Origin: Chthonomonadales bacterium
GTDB lineage: Bacteria > Armatimonadota > Chthonomonadetes > Chthonomonadales > CAJBBX01
Assembly: GCA_037443035.1 (NCBI GenBank)
Contig: JBBIPC010000008.1
Coordinates: 1 to 64,000 of the forward strand
Reading direction: 5' to 3'
DNA: 64,000 nt
Shown: piece by piece, positions 34,893 through 50,470 of the stretch
Position numbering within the stretch: position 1 is the stretch's first letter
How the letters are laid out: every line of letters begins with the position of its first letter
Notes under the pieces: generated by a model
What the model was told of the DNA's origin: nothing
The model's input: the letters and a program-made list of their open reading frames with translations, nothing else
Database searches by the model: none
Position numbers and translations under genes: made by a program

Positions 34893-37800
34893 CTAGCGTT
34901 CGGCCGTGATTGCCAAGACCCGCACGTCGGGTGCGTCACCCAGCGTGATGGCTACTAACGGCTTGGGTTCCTTGATTTCCACTGTGTACCAGAATACCGA
35001 GACGGGAGGTCCTACTCCGTCCGCTGTGCTGGTCCGGGAATACGGCATTGCATGGGCCACTGCTTCGGTGTTGGCTGGAGGGCCGTTCCAGGCGCTCACT
35101 GGGAACGACATGAACTGCTCGGAGCTGTCGGCGAAACGCAGCGTCACTGAGAGGCTCTGACCAGGACGCACTGCTGCAGCCAGGATGTGGACGCGCCGTG
35201 CGAGCTGCGCCTGCTTGGCGGTTGCCACGGGGATCTCCTGACCCCTGCACCGAACTGCGTTGGGGCCGGATGCCGGCAACCAAGCGAAACTGATCTGCCG
35301 GCTTCGAGCCGTGCCTGTGCGTATTTCTGGCATCCAGAGAGTAGCAGGAACCGGAAGGTTCAGCGCGTAGGGCGGGGTTAGCTCGGCTGGATAGGCGTTG
35401 CCGCTGCCATCGAAATCGGGTCGCTTGGCACCGAGGCCACCACTGGCTCCGTGTACGTCGGCTGCGGACTTGAGATCTACGAAGCGAAGCCGTCCGTTCA
35501 CGATCTGTACAAGGCTGACACGCGTTTCGTAGGTTCTGTTGCCCGGCAAGGTAGAGACCCACGTGTCGCCCACGCGGAGGTCCCACACGAGCCAGTAGGT
35601 GCCGTCATGTGGCGGAGCGGTCACTGACGCCCCGACGTCAGCGATCTCCTTTCCTGGCGTTACGTCTACCTTGATCGGGAATACTTCATCTTCCCAGACC
35701 GCTTCCAAGCCATCGAAGTAGTACCAATGGTAACCCACGGCAACCTGATCTCTTAGCCACGTCTGGGGACCGCGGTTGCGAACGCCGATGATCACAGGAA
35801 TCCGGCGCTCCCCGGGGAACCTGCCTGGCGTGTAATCGTTGAAGAACTGGACGCCCATATCGGCTTCTGCCATCTCCACTTCACGCGATGTCGTTGGCAG
35901 GGTCAGAGCGGTATCCGCAGCGAGGTCCACGTCCACTCGCACTAGGTATCGGCCGAAGGTGTCTCCGGAGAAGCGGAACGGACTACCGTCGGGCCGCGCG
36001 AAGGTCGTTGGGATGGTCAGGTCAACTTCGGATCCTGGCAAGACGTCTGACGGGATACGAACCGAGGCGTCGGCCATTTCCAACACGACTGGCTCTCCGT
36101 GGTCGTCGGGCTGTTCGAGCAGGCGTATGCGCACGGCCGTCGTTTCGCGTGGCCAAGGAGCCGGACCATCATTGCGCAGCGTTACGGCTACAGGGTAGGT
36201 GGACTGAGCCTCCACCACGCGTGTCAGAGACGAATCGACGAGCGTGGCGGCGGGGAGCAGGTCGTCGGCTGAGACGATGCGCGTAGCGAGCACGCCGAGG
36301 GCCGCACGCGTCAGCGGGGATGGTGCCAGTGGCTTGCCCTTGCGATCCAGGCGCACAATAGCGATCGTCAGCTCGTGCACCCCTTCCTGGCGCGGCAGGC
36401 TCACATTCAAGACGACCTGGGTCCTGGCGCCGGGTTCTGTGACTGCCGCCACCGGCGCTGGAGACGAAATGGCCGTGTTGCCTGCGAAAGCCACGAAGGC
36501 AGTATCCTCGGGTGACCAGGCGGACGTGCCCTGATTGCGCGCCGAAACGCGGAGCGTCACGGTTCCTCCGGCCGGACACGTAGGAGGAAGGTTCACGCTG
36601 AGGATAGAGCCCCCGAACGGACCCTTGGCGCTGAATCGCAGAGAGAATGCGCGTGTGATGTCAGTATACTCCAGCCCGAACTCGACGGTCGGCGCTATCT
36701 CCGTACCAGCCACATGGTCATTCCAACTCTCGATGAACACCCAGTCAGGGGGCTGGCTGAGCAGACGCCGCCACGCCACACGGTAGTCCTCGGAAGATCT
36801 CCTGGCGAGGGGATGTGCGTTCTGGGCGCGCCCGATGGCCCCTGCATAGATCGAGCCAATGGTGGCTATGCCACGTTCGGAGGTGGCAAAGCCTGTATCC
36901 GTCGCAGAGGGCACAAGCCCGTCGGCGCCCGGAATCTCCTTGCCTGCCGATAGGAGGACGATATCCCTTCTCAGATCCGCGCGCAGCCGGGCTCTGAGCT
37001 CGTCCATCAGCGCCTGTCCGCCTTCTGGGGACAAGCCGCTCAGCACGACAACAGAGGCAGCCCCAACGCCGTTCTGGCCAGCGAGTGGAAGCTGTGCGAT
37101 GTACTGCTCTGGTATGCACTCATGGAACTGCCGTACGGCTCTCTCGAGGCGAGCAGCTAGGTCAGCGGCCTCCTTCATTGCAGATGTGTCCAGCCAAAGG
37201 CACACGGACGGGTAGTCCATGCCGGAAGCTGCCATGCCCTGAAGTGCGGCTGCAATGGCGGTCGCCGCCAACCTGCCTTCCCGATCGGGCCGGAAGGTGA
37301 CGGCGGCGACACCTACGCCAGCCTCGCGCATGCGGGTGAACTGGATGCGATGCCAGTCCGGACGATCGTAGGTGAACCACGGACCGGTTCCGTCCATGGG
37401 ATGTGTGGCCAGTAGTGTCTGCCCGGATGCGTCGGCCACTGCCCGTAGTGGCAAGGCCTTTCGCGTGTCGCACTGATAATCCACCCTGTAGCGAGCGAAG
37501 ACGAGTCGAGGCCATTGCTGCTGCGCCAGTGCATGCTCGCGTGGCGGTGTAGGCTGTCTGACAATGCGACTCGGCATGGTGCCAGCCTTCAGGACCACAG
37601 GCGCCCGAAATCGCGCCGCGGCCGCGGTCCCCATGCCGATGCGCGCACCGCCACCGCTATCCGCGAAGCTGAATGCTGTGACCCGGGACCACTCTCCCTC
37701 GGCAATTGCACCGTCTATGACAGGACGTACATTGTAGACACGAGCACAGACGATGCCACCCGGTACACCGGCGATGGACGCCACGGGAGCGTCGGCAAAG

Positions 37801-38456
37801 ACCATCCGCCCCCAAAAGTGCGCATTCTGCACGTCGTCGCGCGTCTTCACGTCCGGTGACAGACTTGCCAACGGCGCTTCACCTTCCACGGTGTTGAGCA
37901 CCACAACGTTGAAACGCATGACTTCGCCGGGCTTGGGAGGGCCACTCAGTTCCGTCCACGGAATCGCCATCTCCACCGTGAACCCGTTATTCGTATCCGG
38001 AGGGCCATTCAGCGCGCCCCGCGGCCGGAGGCGGTACTTGAATAGAAGTCTCGTGCCGTCGGGCCCGACGCGGAAATCGTCTACGCCGCTGAGAGGTACG
38101 CGACCCTTCCCGCGATAGAGTTGCGCGCCGCCGGCTACACTGACGGCCATCTCCACGCGTGTGTCCGATTCGTCGGGTGATGTGCTGTCGGATCCCGCGG
38201 CAAGGAAAACTGCGATGCAGTCGTCCTGGTACGGATCGTGGAACGGTGCCGACACCGTGCCGCGCAGGACTGCCTTCTCGACATCCGCCGCTACGTAGAA
38301 GTAATCGGCATCGAAAGCTGTGCGGGCGTGCACACGAATGGCCGCACCAGCTCCGCTGCACGCTGTGACGATGCATGTGGCCATGATCCACGCCAGCGAG
38401 TGTCTGGCCAAGAGTACACGGGTGCGGCGCATCAGCAGGGAATAGAGCTGTGTCAT
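34893..38456 (-). CDS. Large secreted multidomain glycan-binding/glycosidase-like protein (CBM9-like, GH99/DUF5010-like barrel, Ig-like domains)
   Basis: CBM9-like FTVEMAIPWTEL and P.IDG...EW; barrel motif WVFIESWND...GTEIAP; Ig-like V.L.N.G..W and GTYWLVWDL. Confidence 0.6.
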   Translation of the reverse strand: MTQLYSLLMRRTRVLLARHSLAWIMATCIVTACSGAGAAIRVHARTAFDADYFYVAADVEKAVLRGTVSAPFHDPYQDDCIAVFLAAGSDSTSPDESDTRVEMAVSVAGGAQLYRGKGRVPLSGVDDFRVGPDGTRLLFKYRLRPRGALNGPPDTNNGFTVEMAIPWTELSGPPKPGEVMRFNVVVLNTVEGEAPLASLSPDVKTRDDVQNAHFWGRMVFADAPVASIAGVPGGIVCARVYNVRPVIDGAIAEGEWSRVTAFSFADSGGGARIGMGTAAAARFRAPVVLKAGTMPSRIVRQPTPPREHALAQQQWPRLVFARYRVDYQCDTRKALPLRAVADASGQTLLATHPMDGTGPWFTYDRPDWHRIQFTRMREAGVGVAAVTFRPDREGRLAATAIAAALQGMAASGMDYPSVCLWLDTSAMKEAADLAARLERAVRQFHECIPEQYIAQLPLAGQNGVGAASVVVLSGLSPEGGQALMDELRARLRADLRRDIVLLSAGKEIPGADGLVPSATDTGFATSERGIATIGSIYAGAIGRAQNAHPLARRSSEDYRVAWRRLLSQPPDWVFIESWNDHVAGTEIAPTVEFGLEYTDITRAFSLRFSAKGPFGGSILSVNLPPTCPAGGTVTLRVSARNQGTSAWSPEDTAFVAFAGNTAISSPAPVAAVTEPGARTQVVLNVSLPRQEGVHELTIAIVRLDRKGKPLAPSPLTRAALGVLATRIVSADDLLPAATLVDSSLTRVVEAQSTYPVAVTLRNDGPAPWPRETTAVRIRLLEQPDDHGEPVVLEMADASVRIPSDVLPGSEVDLTIPTTFARPDGSPFRFSGDTFGRYLVRVDVDLAADTALTLPTTSREVEMAEADMGVQFFNDYTPGRFPGERRIPVIIGVRNRGPQTWLRDQVAVGYHWYYFDGLEAVWEDEVFPIKVDVTPGKEIADVGASVTAPPHDGTYWLVWDLRVGDTWVSTLPGNRTYETRVSLVQIVNGRLRFVDLKSAADVHGASGGLGAKRPDFDGSGNAYPAELTPPYALNLPVPATLWMPEIRTGTARSRQISFAWLPASGPNAVRCRGQEIPVATAKQAQLARRVHILAAAVRPGQSLSVTLRFADSSEQFMSFPVSAWNGPPANTEAVAHAMPYSRTSTADGVGPPVSVFWYTVEIKEPKPLVAITLGDAPDVRVLAITAER

Positions 38457-38604
38457 GGCATACCTCTCACCAACGCCCGGGCAGACGGAGGCTGCACGAG
38501 CCCGACGGCTACGGCGGATTATGGCACACGACAGGCGAGGCCTGACGTACCGATCCTCATGCCCCCGTACTCCGATCAGGCCAGCCACGCCCTGGGACCG
38601 TTCC

Positions 38605-40470: not shown

Positions 40471-42117
40471 ATGGGCGTACGAACGAGGGCCGACCAGGAG
40501 CTAGAAACGCTCATCCGAGCGCGCTATCCCATCGTCTATGTCGTTTCATGGGAAGAGGATCGGGTGGAGGATGCGTTGCGGGCCATCGCCGCAGAACGCA
40601 ACAAGACGCTGCATGTGTGGACCATCACGCGGGGCTTCGGAGCTGGCACGGACAGACGTGACCCGGCGACGCGCGACCCTCTGGCGGCGCTCGAGTACGT
40701 GGCGTCGGCAGCCGACCAGGCGGTCTTCTTGCTGAAGGACTTCCACGCGTATATCAGCGACGCCAGCGTTACTCGTAGGCTGAGGGATCTGACTCCCATA
40801 CTCAAGAACAGCTACAAGAGCCTGGTGATCCTCGCACCAGCATTGAAGCTGCCTGCTGACCTGGAGAAAGAGGTCACCGTTCTCGACTACGCTCTGCCGA
40901 CCTACGAGGAGCTCGCGCGTCTTCTCGACGACATCGTGCTTACCGTCAAGGACACGCCAGGAGTCCACACCGACCTGACGCCAGAACAACGAGAGCAGGT
41001 GCTCAAGGCAGCACAGGGACTGACTGCCATGGAGGCCGAGAACGTCTTCGCCAAGTCCCTGGTCCTGACACGTACCTTCGATGTCGATGTGGTTCTGTCG
41101 GAGAAAGAACAAATCATCCGCAAGTCAGGCATCCTCGAGTACTACCCTGCGTCGGAAGCATTCAGCTCGGTTGGCGGTCTGGATCTGCTGAAGGACTGGA
41201 TGGAGAAGAGGACGTCGTCCTTTACCGACAAGGCTCGGACCTTCGGGCTACCCGAGCCGCGTGGGGTCCTCCTCATCGGCGTTCAAGGCTGCGGAAAGAG
41301 CCTTAGCGCCAAGGCGGTGGGAGCTCAGTGGCGCCTGCCCCTCCTTCGCCTCGATATCGGCAAAGTCTTCGCGGGCCTGGTCGGTGCATCGGAAGAAAAC
41401 ATGCGGAAGGCATTGCGGGTGGCCGAATCGGTCGCTCCGTGCGTTCTCTGGCTGGACGAGTTGGAGAAAGGGCTATCAGGACTGCAAAGCTCAGGGGCGT
41501 CTGACGGCGGCACAACCGCTCGAGTCTTCAGCACCTTCCTGACATGGCTGCAGGAGAAAACAGTGCCGGTCTTTGTGGTGTCGACGGCCAACCAAGTGGA
41601 GGCCCTGCCGCCAGAACTTCTTCGCAAGGGAAGGTTCGACGAGATTTTCTTCATTGATCTGCCTTCCCGCGAAGAGCGCGAGGAGATCTTCCGCATCCAT
41701 CTTCGCAAGCGAAAGCGGGATCCGTCGGAGTTCGACCTGGACCTCCTCTCGAGCGTCACGCCCGGATTCTCGGGGGCGGAGATCGAGCAGGTGGTCATCG
41801 AGGGACTGTATGAAGCCTTCGACTTAGGTGCGGAGCTCACCACCGACCACATTCTGAAGGCGGTCAGGGCCACGGTACCACTGTCCATGACCATGCGTGA
41901 GAAGATTGCGTACCTCAGGGACTGGGCTTCCACCCGCGCGCGACCAGCGTCCAGCGCGATCGCTGAGTCGTTCGAAGTACAGGCGGCCGTGTACATGAAG
42001 CTTCGCGGTACAGCGGGACAGGCTCGTGGCGCTCACGTGGATGCTGAGCCGACGGTTGTCGCCACGGAGCACCAGCCCACTCGGATTCGGCGCAGACGCA
42101 AGGGAAACGCGGCATGA
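40471..42117 (+). CDS. Ycf46-like AAA+ ATPase
   Basis: N-terminal LIRARYP..Y..SWEE.R and LKDFH; Walker A GVQGCGKS, Walker B LWLDELEK and ELLRKGRFD. Confidence 0.9.
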   Translation: MGVRTRADQELETLIRARYPIVYVVSWEEDRVEDALRAIAAERNKTLHVWTITRGFGAGTDRRDPATRDPLAALEYVASAADQAVFLLKDFHAYISDASVTRRLRDLTPILKNSYKSLVILAPALKLPADLEKEVTVLDYALPTYEELARLLDDIVLTVKDTPGVHTDLTPEQREQVLKAAQGLTAMEAENVFAKSLVLTRTFDVDVVLSEKEQIIRKSGILEYYPASEAFSSVGGLDLLKDWMEKRTSSFTDKARTFGLPEPRGVLLIGVQGCGKSLSAKAVGAQWRLPLLRLDIGKVFAGLVGASEENMRKALRVAESVAPCVLWLDELEKGLSGLQSSGASDGGTTARVFSTFLTWLQEKTVPVFVVSTANQVEALPPELLRKGRFDEIFFIDLPSREEREEIFRIHLRKRKRDPSEFDLDLLSSVTPGFSGAEIEQVVIEGLYEAFDLGAELTTDHILKAVRATVPLSMTMREKIAYLRDWASTRARPASSAIAESFEVQAAVYMKLRGTAGQARGAHVDAEPTVVATEHQPTRIRRRRKGNAA

Positions 42118-43580
42118 AGGCCTCCGCGCCGCGTAGATATATGCTCGCAGGCGTCCTGGGCTTCATGCTTGCATGTCACGGACATGCTATCGCCCAGGCC
42201 ACTAGTCCGCCGGATACCGCGCATCTGTTCAATGATGCCCTGGCACGCTACAGGTCCGGCGACCTGGACGCAGCTCTGAGCCTGTTTAGGAAAGTCAGCG
42301 AAGCCACCCCGAAAGACCCCGAGATCCATAACTGGATTGGCTTTCTGCTGATGCGCATGGACAGGCACGCAGAGGCCGTCCGCTCCTTCGAGGAGGCAGT
42401 CCGTCTTCGTCCGGACTACGTAGAGGCGTGGACGAACTTGGGCACGGCATGCATGGCCGGACTCGGTGTCGAACAAGCCCTACAGGCGTTTCGTAAGGCA
42501 GCATCCCTTGCGCCGCGGAACCCGACCGTTCGCTACAACTTGGCGAACGCGCTGGCCCGTGCAGGGAAGCACGCGGAAGCCGTGGCGGAGTTCCGTGAGA
42601 CCGTGCGACTGCGACCCGAAGACTCCGCCGCGTGGAACAACCTCGGCTGTTCGCTTCAGACTCTGAAGCAGCCAGTACCTGCCGCAGACGCCTTTCGGAA
42701 GGCCGTTGCGTTGGAGCCGAAGAACGCGACGTACCAGACCAATCTCGGAGTCGCTCTCAACGAGGCTGGCAAGCCTGGCGAGGCACGGAGGGTCCTGGAA
42801 ACTGCGGTGCGACTCGACAAGCGTAACGTGGCCGCGCGGGTGGGGCTAGCCGAGGCGCTGATTCGGCTCGAGCAGTATGCGGCCGCGATTCCGCACTTGG
42901 AGGAGGCAGCACGCCTGGCACCAAGAGACTTCGCTGTGCAATACAACCTGGGTCTGGCACGTTGGCGGTCTCGCGACCTCAGAGGTGCCGTTGCTGCCTA
43001 TGAATCCGCCAGAGAGATCCTCCCGGACAACGTGGAAACGCTGACCGCCCTTGTCCAACTGTACCAGGCTGCGGGTCGCCTGGCCGACGCCATCAAGACG
43101 TGCGAGCGTTTGGTGGAACTACGGCCGGATGATGCTGGTATCCGGGTAAGGCTCGGGAATCTGAAGGCTGCGTCGGGCGACATGCCGGGCGCTGCTTCGG
43201 CGTGGGAGGATGCGACCGTCAGGGCCCCTACGAGAACCGACGTGCGGTTGCGTCTTGCGGCCTACTACCTGGAGAGGGCCAACCTGGATGCTGCAGAACG
43301 ACACTATCGGCGTGTCTTGCAGCGAGAACCCGCCAACGGTATCGCCATCAACGGTATGGGCCTCATTAGCGATCTGCGAGGCAAGCCTGGCCAGGCAGTG
43401 CAGTACTACCGACGAGCAGTTGCCGCCGCTCCCAACATGGCGGCTGCTTGGAACAACCTCGGTGTCGCGCTGGAGAAGACAGGCGATGTTGCGGGAGCAC
43501 GACGCGCGTACCGCAAGGCGCTGGCAGTGGACGCCGGGTGCACTGATGCCCGAAGAAACTTGGAGCGTCTCGGGCGCTAG
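42114..43580 (+). CDS. Exported tetratricopeptide-repeat protein
   Basis: Signal peptide, more than 10 TPRs (AWNNLG..L, A..AFRKA..L.P) and an ATGA overlap with the ATPase. Confidence 0.9.
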   Translation: MKASAPRRYMLAGVLGFMLACHGHAIAQATSPPDTAHLFNDALARYRSGDLDAALSLFRKVSEATPKDPEIHNWIGFLLMRMDRHAEAVRSFEEAVRLRPDYVEAWTNLGTACMAGLGVEQALQAFRKAASLAPRNPTVRYNLANALARAGKHAEAVAEFRETVRLRPEDSAAWNNLGCSLQTLKQPVPAADAFRKAVALEPKNATYQTNLGVALNEAGKPGEARRVLETAVRLDKRNVAARVGLAEALIRLEQYAAAIPHLEEAARLAPRDFAVQYNLGLARWRSRDLRGAVAAYESAREILPDNVETLTALVQLYQAAGRLADAIKTCERLVELRPDDAGIRVRLGNLKAASGDMPGAASAWEDATVRAPTRTDVRLRLAAYYLERANLDAAERHYRRVLQREPANGIAINGMGLISDLRGKPGQAVQYYRRAVAAAPNMAAAWNNLGVALEKTGDVAGARRAYRKALAVDAGCTDARRNLERLGR

Positions 43581-43670: not shown

Positions 43671-45284
43671 ATGGCCGCGAATCCCGAGAAACCGCAGAAT
43701 CGCGTGTCACGAAGCCAGCAGCCAGCCGTTATGGAAGGAAGGAGCGAGGCGGTGGCGAGGACGCTGACAGAGGGGATGTCCAAGGGGGCGGCGCGTGCCG
43801 AATCCCTGCCGCTGGACGTCGTCAGCATTGCCGACGAACTGCTTTCGCTCGTTGGACCGCGGGCGATCACCCTCCTAACGACACCCCGCCAGCTCGACGA
43901 TGGACGCATCGTGAGACCCCGACTGAGTGTCAACGACTGCTACGCCGCGCTACCAGAGGCATGCCGCAAAATGGCACGAGTCGTCGTTACGCGGCGCCAG
44001 CGCATGGGACAGGCCGGTGGCAGACTCACGCTGGAGGAGATCTTCCCCGACCCGGCGGCGTACCTTGCCAGAGCCATCCGGTCGGTGATCAGCGACGAGG
44101 GTCGGGCAGCACGGCGGGAACCGGAATGCTTTTCCCTGGACGTGCCAATCGGATCCGAGGAGGGTGCCTCGAGCTTTACGCTCGCGGATACGCTGCAAGA
44201 GGAAGATACCGATAGCCTGCCGGAAGAACGGCTTCTGGCGGAAGCTGACCGGACGGAATTCAGGGCAGCATTGCGGAAGGCATTGCGCTCCGTTCCGGCG
44301 AACTATCTCGCAGCACTGGCGCGAGACATGCAGCGAGAACGTGCTCGCCAAGCGGGAAGAGCGGTCGGACCTGCTACGGACGCAGAACGGCAAACTCTTT
44401 GCCGCGCACGTGCAGCGGTCGCGGACGTCATTCGCAAAGAATGCACAGCCGACAATCCGTATGTGTGGATGTTAGGAAGACACAGGACAGCGAAGGTGCC
44501 ACGAAAGACACAGCCGTCGGCGAAGTGGACTGGAGAACGTCAGGATGCCCTCCTGAAGCGTCTGCTCGAGGTCGGCTGGGCTGAGCGGTCGCCGGATCTA
44601 GAAGCAGGGCATGTGGCCGAGGCCGTGGTGAATGACGTCACCGAACCAGGGGCTGTAGCTCCACCGAGCCCGGAGGTCCGCCAGGCCATCCGTGTCTTGG
44701 ATCTCTACACGGTCGATCGCAAGGTGCCAGCCACGGAGCCGGCACGCTCGCTGTACGAAGAGGCGCGTGCACTGCGTGCTGCGGGTCGGATCGAAGAGGC
44801 CCTGAACAGATACCGTGAATGTTACGAGGCCGAACCGGAGTTCGTCGAGGCGCTCAACGAAGTTGGCGTCATGTACAGCCAGCTGGGCAAGCTGCGAGAC
44901 GCGCTTCGGGTGTACCTGACCATCATTGATCTCGATCCCCACGGTCCCCATCGTCACATCGCTGCGACGAACGCAGCCGACATTTACCTGACGTGGTATG
45001 ACGCCGGGCGCAACCGGGATAGGAATATCGCGCTGGCCAGGCAGTATGCCGAGATGGCAATGCAGAGACCATCGCCCATGCGGGCCTGCAATCTTATCTT
45101 GGCCCTGGTGAAGGATCGGATGTACACGGAGGCGCGAGACGTACTGGAGAGGCTGATACGGGAGGACCGAGCCGAGTGTCGCGCCCAGAAACTCCTGGAG
45201 ACAATGTTCCAGATCCGCGACCCAGACTTGGTAGCATGGTGGTCGTGGCTGGAGACGTCGCTGGGTAAGGAGCAGAAACAATGA
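43671..45284 (+). CDS. Divergent sigma70/ECF-like domain fused to C-terminal TPRs (putative peptide-sensing regulator)
   Basis: Region-2-like AYLARAIRSVISDEGR; linker SLDVPIG...TLADTL...PEERLL; LRKALRSVP; region-4.2-like RQTLCRAR; TPRs EALNRYRECYEAEPEFVEALNEVG. No TM segment. The start may be ATG 43731 or 43776. Confidence 0.65.
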   Translation: MAANPEKPQNRVSRSQQPAVMEGRSEAVARTLTEGMSKGAARAESLPLDVVSIADELLSLVGPRAITLLTTPRQLDDGRIVRPRLSVNDCYAALPEACRKMARVVVTRRQRMGQAGGRLTLEEIFPDPAAYLARAIRSVISDEGRAARREPECFSLDVPIGSEEGASSFTLADTLQEEDTDSLPEERLLAEADRTEFRAALRKALRSVPANYLAALARDMQRERARQAGRAVGPATDAERQTLCRARAAVADVIRKECTADNPYVWMLGRHRTAKVPRKTQPSAKWTGERQDALLKRLLEVGWAERSPDLEAGHVAEAVVNDVTEPGAVAPPSPEVRQAIRVLDLYTVDRKVPATEPARSLYEEARALRAAGRIEEALNRYRECYEAEPEFVEALNEVGVMYSQLGKLRDALRVYLTIIDLDPHGPHRHIAATNAADIYLTWYDAGRNRDRNIALARQYAEMAMQRPSPMRACNLILALVKDRMYTEARDVLERLIREDRAECRAQKLLETMFQIRDPDLVAWWSWLETSLGKEQKQ

Positions 45285-45466
45285 AGCTTGCAGATGAGAT
45301 TCGGAAACTGCTGCTTGCTGCTGCGATCGCCTCGACGTTGGCGATCGCCACGGGCAGTCTCTTGAACGGGACCTCGTGCGTGGAGCGCATCGCATCGCTT
45401 GCGACCCACAGCCACTCCATCCAGGTCGCGGACAAAGGTAGCGACGGTCAAGAGACCCACGGCTAG
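45281..45466 (+). CDS. Small 61-aa putative secreted propeptide
   Basis: AAGGAG RBS, ATGA overlap with the upstream stop, hydrophobic h-region (LLLAAAIASTLAIA), polar tail and a strong hairpin downstream. Confidence 0.7.
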   Translation: MKLADEIRKLLLAAAIASTLAIATGSLLNGTSCVERIASLATHSHSIQVADKGSDGQETHG

Positions 45467-45488
45467 ATTGCGATCATTCCAGAGCTAC

Positions 45489-45530
45489 CGTTGGCCGGCC
45501 ACTTCCTCGGGGGAAGGTGGCCGGCCAACG
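45489..45530. terminator. Strong hairpin closing the regulator-peptide unit
   Basis: CGTTGGCCGGCCAC-TTCC..GGAAG-GTGGCCGGCCAACG (14-bp perfect stem), with no U-tract. Confidence 0.55.
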
Positions 45531-45567: not shown

Positions 45568-46611
45568 ATGCCCATTATCCGGGATGCACGCATCGAGGTC
45601 AGGGAGATCCCGTTGCGACATCCCTTCGCTACATCACGCGACGCTGCCCCACGCCATGCAACCCCGCTAGTCCGCATCACGCTCCGCACAGACGAAGGAA
45701 TCCTGGGCACAGGGGAGTGCGTTCCCGTTCCCTATGTGACCGGTGAGACACATGCGACCGTGGAAGCCACGCTGAACCGTGCCGTGCCGGACGTCCTCGG
45801 TGCCAACTGTCTACGCCCTCAGGAGGTGCTGCGGCGCGCAGAGGTGCACTTCCGCCGGCAGCCCGCGGCATTGGCCGGTCTGGAGATGGCCATCTACGAT
45901 GCGTTCTGCAAGGAGTGCGGCGTGACACTCTGGGAGCTGTGCGGGGGTGCCATCGAGGCAGTCACGACCGACGTCACACTGTCCATAGGAGCAGATGCTC
46001 CGAAGCATGCGGCTGCCCTCGCACACGAGGGGTTCCGTATCTTCAAAGTCAAGCTGGGCCGCGGCGACCTGCAGGCCGATCTCCGAGTTCTCGAGACTGT
46101 GCACGAGGCAGTGCCCAACGGCGTCCTGCGGCTCGACGCCAACCAAGCCTACGCTGCCGATGAGGCGCTCCACCTCATAGACGAGGTGGTCAGCAAGGGA
46201 CTGCCAGTGGAACTGCTGGAGCAGCCCGTAGATCGTTCGGACTTGGGCGCCCTGCATAGGGTGGCGGCAGCATCGCCAATCCCTATCTTTGCCGACGAGG
46301 CGGTGCTCACGCCTCAAGACGCCATGCGGCTAGTGGAACACACAGCAGTTCACGGTGTAAATGTCAAGCTCATGAAATCGGGGCTGCGCGGGGCTCTCGC
46401 CATTGCGGCGGTGGCCAAGGCCGCTGACCGAAAGCTCATGATGGGTTGCATGCTGGAGACGTCGCGGGGGATCGGAACTGCACTGGCGTTGGCTGCAGGT
46501 ACGGGTCTCTTCGACTACTTCGATCTCGATGCTCATCTCCTGACCGATGCGCCACCGTGGCAGGGCATGTTCGAATCGGATGGCGCGCTACTGCGCATCA
46601 ATCGGAGATAA
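45568..46611 (+). CDS. Dipeptide (L-Ala-D/L-Glu) epimerase, enolase superfamily
   Basis: GTGEC, FKVKLG, RLDANQ, LEQP, ADE, NVKLMKSG, MMGCMLE and DLD; GAGGAG RBS. Confidence 0.9.
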   Translation: MPIIRDARIEVREIPLRHPFATSRDAAPRHATPLVRITLRTDEGILGTGECVPVPYVTGETHATVEATLNRAVPDVLGANCLRPQEVLRRAEVHFRRQPAALAGLEMAIYDAFCKECGVTLWELCGGAIEAVTTDVTLSIGADAPKHAAALAHEGFRIFKVKLGRGDLQADLRVLETVHEAVPNGVLRLDANQAYAADEALHLIDEVVSKGLPVELLEQPVDRSDLGALHRVAAASPIPIFADEAVLTPQDAMRLVEHTAVHGVNVKLMKSGLRGALAIAAVAKAADRKLMMGCMLETSRGIGTALALAAGTGLFDYFDLDAHLLTDAPPWQGMFESDGALLRINRR

Positions 46612-47296
46612 CTGCGGCGTCGTTCGTGTAGGCGGCGGCATACTCTACGGGCATGTAGGCGTAACGCCCGCCGTTGCCGGAGTCTTTGAAGATGAGAACA
46701 TCGTGCGGTTCCTCTTCTCGGCCAAGGTAGAAGCCCACGAAGAGCACGCTATGGCCGTCGTACACTTCCTCGGCTGGGCACATCCCCAGCACGCCATTAT
46801 CCCAGACCGGCGCCTTGGGCCACCGCAGACCTGCGCAGACTGGCAATCCGTCCCGTATCGCCTGCAGGACCGCCTCCAGTTCGACGTCACTGAGGCCTGT
46901 GTCAATGTCCCACGTCTTGATCCAGGCAAGGTCGTAATGATCCTCGCGAAACGCATGAGCCTGCCGTTTCGCCTCCTTGGTCGGCTCCCAATGCGGGTCG
47001 AAGGTCTCGGCATAGGGCGCGAGCCTGGCCTCGCAGATACCGTGCTTTTCATAGCCTTTCCAGAGGTCCGCGAAGAATCCGCCGTCTTCGTACTCGCCTA
47101 TCGCATCGTTGGAGGCCCAGTTGAGATACTCTTCGCTCAAGATGAAACCTGCCTGCTGCCGCTGGGAGACGGCGAACTCCAGTGCAGCCGTCATGGCGAA
47201 AACGGAGCACGTAGGCCGGCCACCCTGGGACTTCAGGGGCAGCCCCCATTTCGCAAAGAGCGGGCGCAGGTCGGCGCGGCGATTCCTGATACCCAT
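46598..47296 (-). CDS. Papain-like C1 family cysteine peptidase
   Basis: ADLR, QGGRPTCSVFA, LSEEYL, GHSVLFVGF, IFKDSG and GRYAYMPVEY. The start abuts the glmM stop. Confidence 0.8.
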   Translation of the reverse strand: MGIRNRRADLRPLFAKWGLPLKSQGGRPTCSVFAMTAALEFAVSQRQQAGFILSEEYLNWASNDAIGEYEDGGFFADLWKGYEKHGICEARLAPYAETFDPHWEPTKEAKRQAHAFREDHYDLAWIKTWDIDTGLSDVELEAVLQAIRDGLPVCAGLRWPKAPVWDNGVLGMCPAEEVYDGHSVLFVGFYLGREEEPHDVLIFKDSGNGGRYAYMPVEYAAAYTNDAAVISD

Positions 47297-48699
47297 CAGA
47301 TCGCTCCTCCGTGGCGCTCGATAAGTGTGCAAAGCCGGCTGACGACGCTCTCGACAGCGGCCGCATCCCGCCCCTGAGCCATGACACGGACCACCGGTTC
47401 CGTGCCCGACGCTCGGACCGACAACCACTCGGGCCGTTCCAGCGCACTGCGAGCCTCCCGGATGGCTGCCTGAACGGCAGGTACCTCTTGCCAACGCCTG
47501 CGATCCGCGACGGGTACGTTCCGAAGAACTTGCGGGTAGACCGGCACGTTGCCTGCAATCTCGCCCAAAGGCTTCTGCGCCTGGCGCATCTCGCGCAGGA
47601 CCTGGAGCCCAGTCACCATCCCGTCGCCCGTTCTGGTCAGGTGGGCGAAAATGACGTGTCCCGATTGTTCCCCACCCAGTACGGCGCCCGTGCGAGCCAT
47701 CTCTTCTGCGACGTATCTATCGCCGACGTCCGTGCGGCGAAGTGCAATGCCGTGGGCCTCCAAGAAGGCTTCCAGCCCGGCGTTGCTCATGATCGTCGCG
47801 ACCACTTGGTCTCCGTCCAGTTCGCCTCGCTGTTTCATGCCAACTGCGCATATGGCCATGATCCGGTCCCCATCCACCAGGCGGCCCGCCTCGTCGCACA
47901 TGATGACGCGATCTCCGTCGCCATCGAAGGCCAGGCCGGCATCAGCGCCGACCTGCCTGACGAGTTCGCACATAGCCTGGGGAGCCGTGGAACCACAATT
48001 CCGATTGATGTTAGTGCCGTCCGGGCTTGCATGCAGTACGTGGACGTCTGCGCCGAGGTCTGCGAAGAGCGCCGGTGCGAAGTACGATGTGGCGCCGTTG
48101 GCGCAGTCGAGGACTAGTCGGAAGCCGTCGAGCGGACCACCCGCCGTGGCTGCGACATGGGCAACGTAACCCATGACGGGTGCACGATGGTGGACGAGTG
48201 CGTCTTCCGCGCCGTGAACGACTGTGTCTCCCTCCGCGGCGTCGAAGATCCTACCGATGCCGGCGCCGGTAGGCCAGGGAACGTCCTGGACATTGGCGAG
48301 GACGTCTTCGATCTCGGATTCGAGGGCATCCGGAAGCTTGCATCCGTCAGGACCCAGGAACTTGATACCATTGTCTTCGTACGGGTTGTGGGATGCCGAG
48401 ATGATCGCTCCTGCCGCAGCCCGCAACCGTACGACGATATGAGACACGGCTGGCGTCGGAACCACGCCCACGTTCGTGACAGCGCACCCCGTTGCTGCCA
48501 ATCCCGCGTTCAGTGCTGCCTCCAGCATGTCGCCAGAGATACGCGTGTCCCGGCCGACGATCACATGGCGGTTGGTAGCGTGGCGCCCGAGGATGTGGGC
48601 CGCAGCGATACCTAGCTTGAGGGCGAAGGGGGCGGTGAGCTCTCGATTCGCGACGCCACGGACCCCGTCGGTACCAAACGTGGGTTCCCTGGCTGTCAT
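47296..48699 (-). CDS. glmM: Phosphoglucosamine mutase
   Basis: FGTDGVRG, ISASHNP, DGDGDR, GGEQSGH and RASGTEP. Confidence 0.96.
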   Translation of the reverse strand: MTAREPTFGTDGVRGVANRELTAPFALKLGIAAAHILGRHATNRHVIVGRDTRISGDMLEAALNAGLAATGCAVTNVGVVPTPAVSHIVVRLRAAAGAIISASHNPYEDNGIKFLGPDGCKLPDALESEIEDVLANVQDVPWPTGAGIGRIFDAAEGDTVVHGAEDALVHHRAPVMGYVAHVAATAGGPLDGFRLVLDCANGATSYFAPALFADLGADVHVLHASPDGTNINRNCGSTAPQAMCELVRQVGADAGLAFDGDGDRVIMCDEAGRLVDGDRIMAICAVGMKQRGELDGDQVVATIMSNAGLEAFLEAHGIALRRTDVGDRYVAEEMARTGAVLGGEQSGHVIFAHLTRTGDGMVTGLQVLREMRQAQKPLGEIAGNVPVYPQVLRNVPVADRRRWQEVPAVQAAIREARSALERPEWLSVRASGTEPVVRVMAQGRDAAAVESVVSRLCTLIERHGGAI

Positions 48700-49283
48700 G
48701 GACGTGTCGCTACCTTGACCATTGCGGGTCGGATCACACGACCATCCATCGTGTATCCGCGCTGAAGCTCCTCGACGACGGTGTTCTCATCGACTTCCGC
48801 ATCTTCGACACGCATGGCCGCATCATGGAGATTCGGGTCGAATGGCTGCCCAACGGCCTCGATGGGCTCCACACCGTGCTTCTGGAGCAGTTCTCGCAGT
48901 TGCCGCAAGATCAGCTCGACGCCGGCGACCAGGCCGTCGAAGCTCCGTGAATCAGCCGCTGACGCCAGAGCACGCTCGAAGTTGTCGAGTATGGGCAGCA
49001 AATCCGCTACGAACTCCTGCACAGCCCTCGACGCTGTCTCGGCCCGTTGCTCCTCGCTTCTGCGTCGGAAGTTCTGGAAGTCGGCCAGGACCCGCAACGC
49101 CTGGGTACGTTCCGCTTCGAGCTCCTTCTCCAACTCAAGTATACGGTCCTCGATGGAGGCTGCCTGCTCCTCCTCACTGAGAACCTCGGTAGGAAGTACC
49201 GCAGCGCCCTCCGGCTCTGCCTGCGGCTGCTCCGTTGTCACGCTGTCCTCTTTGGCATCTTTCTTGCGTTTCATGGCTGACAT
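48696..49283 (-). CDS. grpE: Nucleotide exchange factor GrpE
   Basis: ADFQNFRRR, LLPILDNFERA, FDPNLHDA and GY....RVIRPAMVKV. Confidence 0.95.
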   Translation of the reverse strand: MSAMKRKKDAKEDSVTTEQPQAEPEGAAVLPTEVLSEEEQAASIEDRILELEKELEAERTQALRVLADFQNFRRRSEEQRAETASRAVQEFVADLLPILDNFERALASAADSRSFDGLVAGVELILRQLRELLQKHGVEPIEAVGQPFDPNLHDAAMRVEDAEVDENTVVEELQRGYTMDGRVIRPAMVKVATRP

Positions 49284-49375
49284 TCCGTCTCCACTAGGTG
49301 GCATCTACGGCACTCGATAGCGCCTCTCGCTGGCCAAGCAGTGACTGGCCTGCCTCGATCGGTGCTTACCGTTAC

Positions 49376-50416
49376 TTACGAAAAGCTGGTGCGTGCCAGC
49401 ACCGAGGACAGTGCTCGCGCCGTTAGTTCCACGGCTGCTACCGCCCTGTCGTAGTGCATACGCGTCGGCCCCAGGACCCCGATGTGGCCCCAACCTCGCG
49501 AACCCGCCTGATACCGCCTTATGACGACGCTACATTCGTCCAGCACGGATAGATGGCTCTCCGGACCTATGAGGACTGCGACCTGGTCGGGTTCGCCGAT
49601 TAGGCGCAGGACGTAGGAGAATGCGTTACCCTCGACAAGGTCAGCGAGGATCTGCTCCATGCGCAATACATCGCGGAACTCCGGATGCCGGAACATGACG
49701 CTTGTGCCTTCGAACATCAGTTCGTCTTTGCGCACTTCCTCAGCTATCTTCCGTACCGCACTGAGGATGCGTTCCAGTGCATCGTTCCCCGTGTCCATGT
49801 CCACTTGTGGTTGGGCTCGTACTGAGCGAATCTCCGACACCGAACGGCCAGCGAGCAGCGTGTTGAGCCGCTCGCAGACATACTGAACAGTCGTTCCGCG
49901 AAGCGTGCGAGCGAGCTTCACAATCCGGCTCTCCGTATGGCCGGTCGAGAACAGCACGACGACAAGCACATGGGCCCTGTCAGCAGCGGCGAGGAACACG
50001 CGATGTACCTGGATGTCTCCCTGCGTCGGCGCTGATGCTACCGAGGGATAGTCGGTCATACGCACGAGGAACCGGCATGCATCGCGAACGATTTCGTTCA
50101 CGTCCTCGCGCACCTTCGATCCGCGACGGAGTTCCCTAAGCGCGGGACGCATCTTCAGTGGCAGCGGCTGCATGAGGTTATCCACGTAATACCGGTACCC
50201 CATCGGGGTCGGAATGCGGCCAGCTGATGTGTGGGGCTGTTTGAGGAGGCCCGCCTCGGACATCTCGCACATCTCGTTGCGCAGAGTCGCCCCGCGACAG
50301 CCAAAGTCGAAACGCGAGGCGAGCCACTGAGATCCGATGGGCTCTCCCGTTTCCACGTATCCGTGCACCACTGCCTGGAGGATGCGCTGTTTCCGTGCTG
50401 ATAGCTCTCTGAGCAT
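49376..50416 (-). CDS. hrcA: Heat-inducible transcription repressor HrcA
   Basis: YVETGEPIGS, ATLRNEM, QPHTSAGRIPT..GYRYYVD and GVLGPTRMHY. Confidence 0.95.
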   Translation of the reverse strand: MLRELSARKQRILQAVVHGYVETGEPIGSQWLASRFDFGCRGATLRNEMCEMSEAGLLKQPHTSAGRIPTPMGYRYYVDNLMQPLPLKMRPALRELRRGSKVREDVNEIVRDACRFLVRMTDYPSVASAPTQGDIQVHRVFLAAADRAHVLVVVLFSTGHTESRIVKLARTLRGTTVQYVCERLNTLLAGRSVSEIRSVRAQPQVDMDTGNDALERILSAVRKIAEEVRKDELMFEGTSVMFRHPEFRDVLRMEQILADLVEGNAFSYVLRLIGEPDQVAVLIGPESHLSVLDECSVVIRRYQAGSRGWGHIGVLGPTRMHYDRAVAAVELTARALSSVLARTSFS

Positions 50417-50440
50417 GGTCCGAACCTCGCGTATCGGTCC

Positions 50441-50470
50441 AGTATAGTCATGCGCCGAAACGCCTGTCAA
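50441..50470 (-). promoter_or_regulatory. Sigma70-type promoter for hrcA
   Basis: The minus strand reads TTGACA-18 nt-TATACT. Confidence 0.72.

Follow-up and report, generated by a model that had tools for sequence, protein, structure and literature searches.

A sigma-like TPR protein and its small, probably exported peptide as a candidate peptide-controlled sigma factor of the order Chthonomonadales

Can one protein act both as a sigma factor and as the receptor of a peptide encoded directly behind it? The question is raised by a two-gene locus in a 64,000-nt stretch of DNA from a Chthonomonadales bacterium (assembly GCA_037443035.1, contig JBBIPC010000008.1, positions 1 to 64,000; hereafter the window), where a 537-codon open reading frame (ORF; 43671-45284, plus strand) overlaps a 61-codon ORF (45281-45466, plus strand) at ATGA. 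A sequence-only reading had proposed that the first ORF fuses a sigma-70/extracytoplasmic function (ECF)-like half to tetratricopeptide repeats (TPRs), that the second encodes a secreted peptide, and that the pair forms an RRNPP-like peptide-sensing system with a sigma output. Both ORFs, their overlap, the AAGGAG ribosome-binding site (RBS) of the small one and the 14-bp hairpin that it described are present in the sequence, and all motifs it quoted occur in the translation. Its 537-aa protein holds as an open frame but not as regards the start. The likely start is GTG 43752, giving a product of 510 aa, since AGGAG stands at 43740-43744, ATG 43671 is upstream of the promoter described below (43705-43729), and the protein has a length of 510 aa in the database. 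Residue numbers are nevertheless counted from ATG 43671, in the 537-aa frame.

Our analysis points to a real, order-wide and unannotated two-gene system whose putative ligand, pocket, promoter and targets can be read from sequence. With somewhat better than even confidence, we propose that the gene pair constitutes a peptide-controlled ECF-type sigma factor, which would function like RRNPP systems with its peptide re-entering the cell through an importer. None of the three outcomes by which computation could have told against the proposal was observed: the N-half does resemble sigma-70 domains, if weakly, the small ORF is constant, and peptide core and TPR half co-change. The idea of a peptide-controlled sigma factor is thereby supported.

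A small ORF with a conserved core beside the receptor gene

A sequence search (8000 scored candidates) returned 180 relatives of the receptor at E <= 0.001. The 120 among the matches listed share 48-98% identity with it across most of their length, and the named ones are Chthonomonadales or Armatimonadota proteins called 'TPR' or 'hypothetical', a labelling under which surveys of ECF sigmas and RRNPP systems by hidden Markov model (HMM) would miss them. An alignment query of genome contigs yielded 51 loci whose titles read Chthonomonadales, Armatimonadota or an unassigned 'bacterium' (a single-protein query of the same contigs matched nothing), and metagenomes contributed 70 further loci. In a sample of 401 genomes of the phylum, a profile of the N-half found one strong match (E < 1e-85) in 52 of the 54 that belong to the window's order, and none in the remaining 347. 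The gene pair marks one order, Chthonomonadales by its named relatives. The receptor is a single chromosomal copy per genome, and no copy was found in viral contigs. A literature search, thin on subscription papers, returned nothing on the receptor family or on a peptide-pheromone-binding sigma factor; the accessible part of a report on C. calidirosea notes many ECF sigmas and makes no mention of the family (PMC4959169).

The 121 fetched loci and the window make 122, from which eight without the receptor C-terminus, one without a stop and three with at most 70 nt downstream were set aside. All 110 assessable loci, including 49 of 49 genome loci, carry a small signal-peptide-like ORF with the core (D)G-x-E-[TS]-[HNTG]-G. 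This core was found by pattern in 108 and added for L005 and L007, where it reads DGQETGG. The small ORF starts between -14 and +9 nt from the receptor stop in 106 of the 110, and at -4 in 37. With L117 dropped, whose peptide gene is apparently frameshifted, 95 distinct peptides were analysed. Judged from charge and hydropathy, every one has an n-region of net charge +1 to +5 followed by an uncharged stretch of at least 14 residues; the core lies 12-40 residues beyond this stretch, with [VIL]A ahead of it in 58 peptides and a tail after it in 63, and a lipobox-like sequence occurs in one. Multiple cores are found in 11 peptides (two copies in eight, three in three). Lengths range from 48 to 106 aa in relatives, nearly all under 100, against 61 aa in the window.

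An alignment of 82 peptides, which leaves out 13 that are mostly multi-core, has a mean column identity of 20%, and only M1, G56 and E58 are invariant. Searching with a peptide profile gave 40 proteins, all with the core, and DGQETHG accounts for 61 motif copies across both large families. Of the five core-motif matches in the window's own genome, only that of the window sits in a propeptide, and no orphan peptides were found there; viral contigs held 48 core-pattern matches, none judged to sit in a signal-peptide ORF. The conserved downstream ORF foreseen by the sequence-only reading is borne out in all 110 loci. The variable C-terminus that it expected has to be corrected: the C-terminal core is conserved, and it is the tail, spacer and signal region that vary. 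Phr propeptides likewise combine a conserved pheromone with an unconserved remainder, repeats and tails (PMC11343458), and a conserved core in an unconserved propeptide, tandem cores and tails are common to both. In four peptides (L080, L094, L025, L028), pseudo-repeats in varied decay, EGSESHG or EGGGG, precede the cognate DGQETHG; together they make up a short series in which cores are duplicated and lost.

Could the small protein be a plain membrane-anchored anti-sigma, whose uncleaved h-region keeps the sigma-TPR protein tethered to the inner membrane until a stress frees it? Genes of ECF anti-sigmas are typically laid out in this way, with a +1 position, translational coupling and a single hydrophobic helix (10.1101/2019.12.11.873521). 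Tandem cores would nevertheless be hard to explain in an anchor, and the cytoplasmic N-terminus is short and unconserved. Moreover, a basic n-region stays cytoplasmic under the positive-inside rule, and all 95 peptides have one, so that the core would face outwards and be separated from the TPRs by the membrane. We consider an anchored anti-sigma very improbable. Still less credible, to the point of being remote, is that the small protein has an extracellular job of its own, for instance as a modified peptide, with the TPRs merely chaperoning or sensing its precursor. Repeated cores with G/K-rich tails do resemble multi-core precursors, but no modifying enzyme, protease or exporter is conserved beside the pair, the commonest neighbours reaching only 11 and 6 of the 51 genome loci.

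A TPR half that changes in step with the core

The C-half had been read as TPRs with asparagines on successive helices, and this was confirmed: it scores 35.3 bits on PF07719 (cut-off 27), its AlphaFold model has five helix pairs at residues 356-536, and Asn396, Asn434 and Asn474 are retained in 84, 90 and 90 of 90 receptors, respectively. Structural matches of the domain are generic TPR proteins (CTPR, OGT, MamA, HOP, LGN; Z 13-15), and the ESM Atlas, taken as a lead only, also returned generic TPRs for the C-half. No RRNPP receptor occurs among the matches listed in sequence and structure searches of the domain, which generic TPRs fill. The description 'RRNPP-like' is apt for the working logic and is used here with no claim of descent from RRNPP receptors.

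The variable core position x (G-x-E) was compared with residue 403 in 90 distinct receptor-peptide pairs. Q occurs with S or C in 61 of 61 pairs, and a residue other than Q occurs with one other than S or C in 29 of 29, the latter pairing N with N, I with I, S or T with M, and V with I, M or H. Where a peptide has several cores, its last copy was scored; scoring the first instead makes L080 the single exception. On trees of 83 rows, built without the tested columns and leaving out seven short rows, residue 403 and x have 8 of 10 changes in common, which places residue 403 first among 395 columns with a score of 0.80 (median 0.15, 99th percentile 0.55). The next best columns for x are I438, T441 and T433. 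For the other variable core positions, D349 shares 4 of 4 changes with the H/N/T/G position, and L345 and T347 are the top columns for the T/S position. The top co-change columns lie within or beside the TPR domain: N396 and S403 are seven residues apart on helix 392-405, and residues 433-441 are on helix 427-444, both helices being of the type that lines the TPR groove. Together, the alignments suggest that the peptide core changes in step with residues of the TPR half.

A sigma-like half, its promoter and the weight of the alternatives

The N-half resembles sigma factors weakly but in every method. Sigma-70 families make up 22 of the 25 NCBIfam families among the matches listed for the N-halves, and TIGR02937 is matched by 25 of 87 N-halves at E <= 0.1 (best E 2e-5). 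The best non-TPR match in the window's own genome is an ECF sigma, and ten of the 28 weak outside matches to the N-half profile were fetched, nine of which are ECF sigmas above cut-off. By hhalign, the N-half aligned with an ECF set, composed of eight of these fetched sigmas and the genome's own, at P 97.6 and E 4e-12, in the same order from sigma2 through to sigma4. AlphaFold gave confident models, with predicted local distance difference test (pLDDT) scores of 87.1 and 88.6. All 48 Foldseek matches listed for the N-half model are RNA polymerase (RNAP)-holoenzyme or sigma entries by title, and VIA aligns ECF sigmas with residues 1-220 at Z 5.5-5.9. The ESM Atlas, again a lead only, ranks unnamed clusters first, the nearest named ones being Sigma70_r2/r4 at 0.93-0.94. 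Sigma2-like and sigma4-like parts are both retained, with many invariant basic residues. The sigma-like N-half of the sequence-only reading therefore recurs in HMM, profile-profile and structure searches, each weak alone and all in agreement on a divergent sigma-70/ECF module.

Ahead of the receptor gene, 80 of the 87 distinct upstream regions contain TGTCAC, against 4.5 after shuffling. The full motif TGTCAC[AG]-N15-CGT is found in 77 of the 87; one further region has it at N16, five more have CGTCAC, and two are too short. Autoregulation is usual among ECF sigmas, through a bipartite promoter whose -10 element is CGT (PMC3426412). Within 600 nt upstream of the 24 other Sigma70_r2 genes of the genome, the motif was found in none. 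The best score in the genome on TIGR02957, which we take to be ECF41, is 60 bits against a cut-off of 323. Candidate targets were picked from the genome's list of sites before genes with an RBS and then checked by conservation in orthologues; the genome-wide count shows no excess and is mixed across 61 genomes, and the targets emerged only through this conservation.

Three unlinked, conserved targets, T1 to T3, were obtained in this way, all of them predicted exported proteins or lipoproteins. T1 (G000:C1) is a 555-aa exported R/D/G-rich protein without a Pfam match, and the 30 loci of its orthologues contain 18 strict and five CGTCAC sites, against three matches at six control spacings; three of these 30 loci end before the start. 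T2 (G000:C1), a lipoprotein with CarboxypepD_reg domains, has nine strict and five CGTCAC sites among 20 orthologues and three more with GGTCAC, with none at control spacings. Under a relaxed pattern, 8 of 11 additional genomes from the order have the T2 site, whereas none of 26 orthologues outside it does (one 60-nt region dropped; 11 of the 26 are of one genus and 10 of one family). T3 (G000:C18), an exported protein with Cu_amine_oxidN1, has the site in four of four close orthologues and in none of four weak ones. With the motif missing upstream of all other sigma genes in the genome and before the T2 orthologues outside the order, the promoter goes with the receptor gene, though gene and promoter have one common origin at the level of the order. 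On the sequence evidence, a conserved ECF-type promoter and a predicted small regulon strengthen the sigma interpretation. As a separate observation, T1 (L143:505-2172, minus strand, equal to G000:C1:44807-46471) is present in 56 of the order's 61 genomes and joins an R/D/G/P-rich low-complexity half of very variable length to a conserved C-terminal domain without a Pfam match.

These results bear on a further alternative, in which the N-half has decayed from a sigma and lost the ability to direct RNAP, the protein being a peptide-controlled DNA-binding repressor or RNAP decoy and a different ECF reading the promoter. The sub-threshold sigma scores, NDCY in place of DAED, the altered helix-turn-helix (HTH) and the 24 ordinary sigma-70 genes of the genome speak for it. 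Both sigma parts with their invariant basic residues are kept, however, the promoter with its two elements and fixed spacing occurs only where the receptor gene occurs, and it is carried by no other sigma gene of the genome. We regard this alternative as improbable.

Several results weigh against a peptide-controlled sigma factor. The window protein scores 15.8 bits on TIGR02937 (curated cut-off 42.9), every sigma HMM match of the N-halves falls under its curated cut-off, and a Pfam scan of the window's N-half gave no match. The hhalign score is inflated, since the ECF set was chosen from matches to the same profile, and in that alignment NDCY stands opposite the ECF DAED and the first HTH helix is changed. 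Altered DAED motifs can make an ECF dependent on activation. No Foldseek match of the N-half reached E <= 0.001, and the top VIA match, SigL sigma4 at Z 6.5 with a root-mean-square deviation of 3.6 over 71 residues, is middling. The promoter has no genome-wide excess (10 sites at N15, 11-19 at other spacings), and its single order-level origin together with the gene means that another order-specific sigma could read it. The co-evolution is formally non-significant because independent pairs are few: there are two to three on well-supported branches, all in the same direction (p 0.25-0.5), and seven on all branches. The DGQETHG core is far more conserved than a strain-specific signal would need. 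Lastly, in a two-membrane cell the peptide may never exit the periplasm. A related Armatimonadota lineage encodes lipopolysaccharide synthesis (LPS) and BamA and is reported to be diderm (PMC5629042), and the peptide may therefore act from the periplasm.

Taking the peptide-controlled sigma factor as our working model, the sigma-like protein would bind RNAP, read the promoter itself and transcribe its own operon and a few exported-protein genes from TGTCAC[AG]-N15-CGT promoters. The 61-aa propeptide would be exported by Sec, and cleavage behind the [VIL]A motif would leave a short peptide that contains DGQETHG. The genome has one SBP_bac_5 gene, and the core may be re-imported through this single Opp/Dpp-type binding protein. 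Inside the cell, the core is predicted to bind the TPR groove, with N396, N434 and N474 holding its backbone, S403 reading Q and D349 reading H, and this binding would switch the fused sigma module. We lean very slightly towards the peptide turning the sigma off rather than on, because a returning anti-sigma would close the positive loop of a self-transcribing sigma, and because the two genes are translationally coupled with no other conserved neighbour fit to be an anti-sigma.

The main rival to this model is a sentinel of export or the envelope, with no cell-cell signalling. Here the propeptide would be a Sec substrate normally cleared from the cytoplasm, and export lag, periplasmic leak or failed recycling would alter the amount of core at the TPRs, so that the sigma resets transcription of exported proteins. 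T1 to T3 are all predicted exported or lipoproteins, the core is nearly identical across the order, the tail past the core in 63 of 95 peptides would allow the TPRs to read an internal motif unprocessed, and the receptor is a single chromosomal copy with none found in viral contigs. Repeated core/receptor switches (Q/S, N/N, V/I, S/M) and tandem cores nonetheless better suit a signal with specificity types, and [VIL]A directly ahead of the core suggests processing after export. We judge such a sentinel unlikely, if the least so of the alternatives. Returning to the peptide-controlled sigma factor, we give roughly even chances to a fuller statement of it: an independently evolved peptide pheromone with a sigma-factor receptor, a one-protein switch fixed in an order of two-membrane bacteria, with a residue code of position 403 against Q/N/V/I/S/T and of position 349 against H/N/T/G.

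Locus features, neighbouring genes and known systems

The features of the locus are collected in Table 1. The hairpin has no U-run and is therefore no classic intrinsic terminator; one is found downstream of the peptide gene in 86 of 97 loci, a count made without a control and not used as evidence.

Table 1. Features of the two-gene locus (window coordinates)
Feature	Position	Strand	Basis or remark
-35-like element TGTCACG of conserved ECF-type promoter	43705..43711	+	TGTCAC in 80/87 upstream regions
-10-like element CGT, 15 nt past -35 element	43727..43729	+	spacing of 15 in 77/78 sites with both elements
AGGAG ribosome-binding site before GTG 43752	43740..43744	+	sequence; yields 510-aa product
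Sigma-like/TPR receptor gene, 510 aa, likely GTG start	43752..45284	+	open frame from 43671 = 537 aa
Divergent sigma-70/ECF-like module, residues 49-260	43815..44450	+	sigma2-like helices, SLD-x-P linker, sigma4-like helices with altered first HTH helix
Strand/loop directly ahead of first TPR, residues 342-349	44694..44717	+	L345, T347, D349 co-change with T/S and H core positions
TPR domain, residues 356-536, five helix pairs	44736..45278	+	conserved N396, N434, N474, R369, D437, W442, R471, K481, D482
S403 codon, residue tracking variable core position x (G-x-E)	44877..44879	+	90 distinct pairs
AAGGAG ribosome-binding site of small ORF, within end of receptor gene	45267..45272	+	sequence
61-aa propeptide gene	45281..45466	+	basic n-region, hydrophobic h-region, variable spacer, [VIL]A motif, conserved core
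Core DGQETHG, likely ligand	45443..45463	+	sole copy in propeptide-like ORF among 5 genome motif matches
Perfect 14-bp inverted repeat downstream of operon, arms 45489-45502/45517-45530	45489..45530	+	no U-run after

When ORFs of at least 100 aa were clustered, no neighbour beyond the pair was conserved in more than 11 of the 51 genome loci, and no YCII-type gene, a trait of ECF42, is a conserved neighbour there. A wider conserved neighbourhood was rejected, the commonest neighbours reaching only 11 and 6 of the 51. The first of these is a 620-680-aa exported HEAT-repeat protein encoded just downstream of the peptide gene in 11 loci (L019, L023-L025, L028, L031, L035, L048 and others), with no match in the window's genome. 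The second is an L-Ala-D/L-Glu epimerase-like gene of the enolase superfamily, which lies past the hairpin in the window (45568-46611, plus strand) and in the same place in six genome loci; this dipeptide epimerase, at 6 of 51, was not counted as part of the system. Directly upstream of the promoter, at 40471-43580 (plus strand), a gene for a 548-aa AAA ATPase overlaps one for a 488-aa exported TPR protein, and few relatives keep both. In seven loci (L005, L007, L010, L012, L040, L062, L065), divergent upstream genes have flagellin-like N-termini by reading, in tandem in L007 and L065. Elsewhere in the window, 34893-38588 (minus strand) encodes an exported protein of 1231 aa with several domains, which looks sugar-binding or glycoside-hydrolase-like, and hrcA-like, grpE-like and glmM-like genes, labelled by reading their translations, stand in a row at 47296-50470 (minus strand). 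A second, unrelated sigma-TPR fusion occurs on the minus strand of G000:C19, in a 752-codon frame from 54562; it joins an ordinary ECF core (Sigma70_r2 above cut-off) to a long TPR array, and no propeptide-like ORF was found downstream of it.

Intracellular peptide receptors are described mainly from Gram-positive bacteria (Bacillota), with HTH or Rap-type outputs. The two-gene unit joins such receptors with the TPR-extended ECF sigmas (ECF42), for whose TPRs the accessible sources name no ligand. If our proposal is true, it adds a new mode of sigma control by a returning peptide, extends peptide signalling to a diderm phylum with almost no known regulation, opens a first way into the study of cell-to-cell signalling in Armatimonadota, and supplies synthetic circuits with orthogonal peptide/sigma pairs of natural origin. 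With candidate ligand, pocket residues, promoter and targets named, the unit lends itself to immediate tests in a laboratory host.

Among known systems, the likeness is closest in layout to RRNPP(A), that is, Rap/Phr, NprR/NprX, PlcR/PapR, PrgX, Rgg/SHP and AimR/AimP, which place a cytoplasmic TPR receptor beside a small Sec-type propeptide, an arrangement predicted here too (PMC10075063, PMC9765709, PMC11343458), and share conserved TPR asparagines, receptor residues that track the peptide, and tandem or pseudo-repeated cores. RRNPP(A) systems are recognised by a propeptide of 10-100 aa, Sec export, a receptor of about 250-500 aa, TPRs and adjacent genes (PMC10075063), and their effector is an N-terminal HTH and/or a three-helix bundle (PMC9765709). 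Three of five signature features are found here (a 61-aa propeptide, TPRs and adjacency in 110 of 110 loci); Sec export is predicted from the basic n-region and the uncharged stretch of at least 14 residues in 95 of 95 peptides, the 510-aa receptor lies slightly beyond the size range, and the output is a two-domain sigma-70-like module with no HTH/three-helix bundle. The system works like RRNPP, but with this effector we do not count it as a member. It differs further in having about five helix pairs, an Armatimonadota rather than a Bacillota host, a single chromosomal copy and an order-wide core.

Fusions of sigma factors to TPRs are, as such, already known from ECF42. There a C-terminal TPR extension of about 200 residues, with YCII-domain neighbour genes, is thought to control activity through a bound partner that the accessible sources leave unknown (PMC8999054; 10.1101/2019.12.11.873521). 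The extension is of similar size here (about 200 aa, residues 356-536), whereas the adjacent gene encodes a probably exported peptide, and the sigma core scores below the sigma-70 HMM cut-offs. ECF41 sigmas recognise TGTCACA-n16(+/-1)-CGTC and have a fused regulatory C-terminal domain and a very small regulon, the extension being SnoaL-like and the sole target a neighbouring carboxymuconolactone decarboxylase, oxidoreductase or epimerase gene (PMC3426412). TGTCAC[AG]-N15-CGT fits the ECF41 spacing, although its final C is unconserved here, and a fused regulatory C-terminal domain and a very small regulon are likewise shared; the extension, however, is TPR rather than SnoaL-like, and the candidate targets are the system's own operon and exported proteins. 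Lastly, in the ComR/ComS-to-ComX pathway of streptococci a peptide pheromone also ends in sigma-factor activity, but there the receptor acts through a cascade on a sigma that is a protein of its own, while here the two are one polypeptide.

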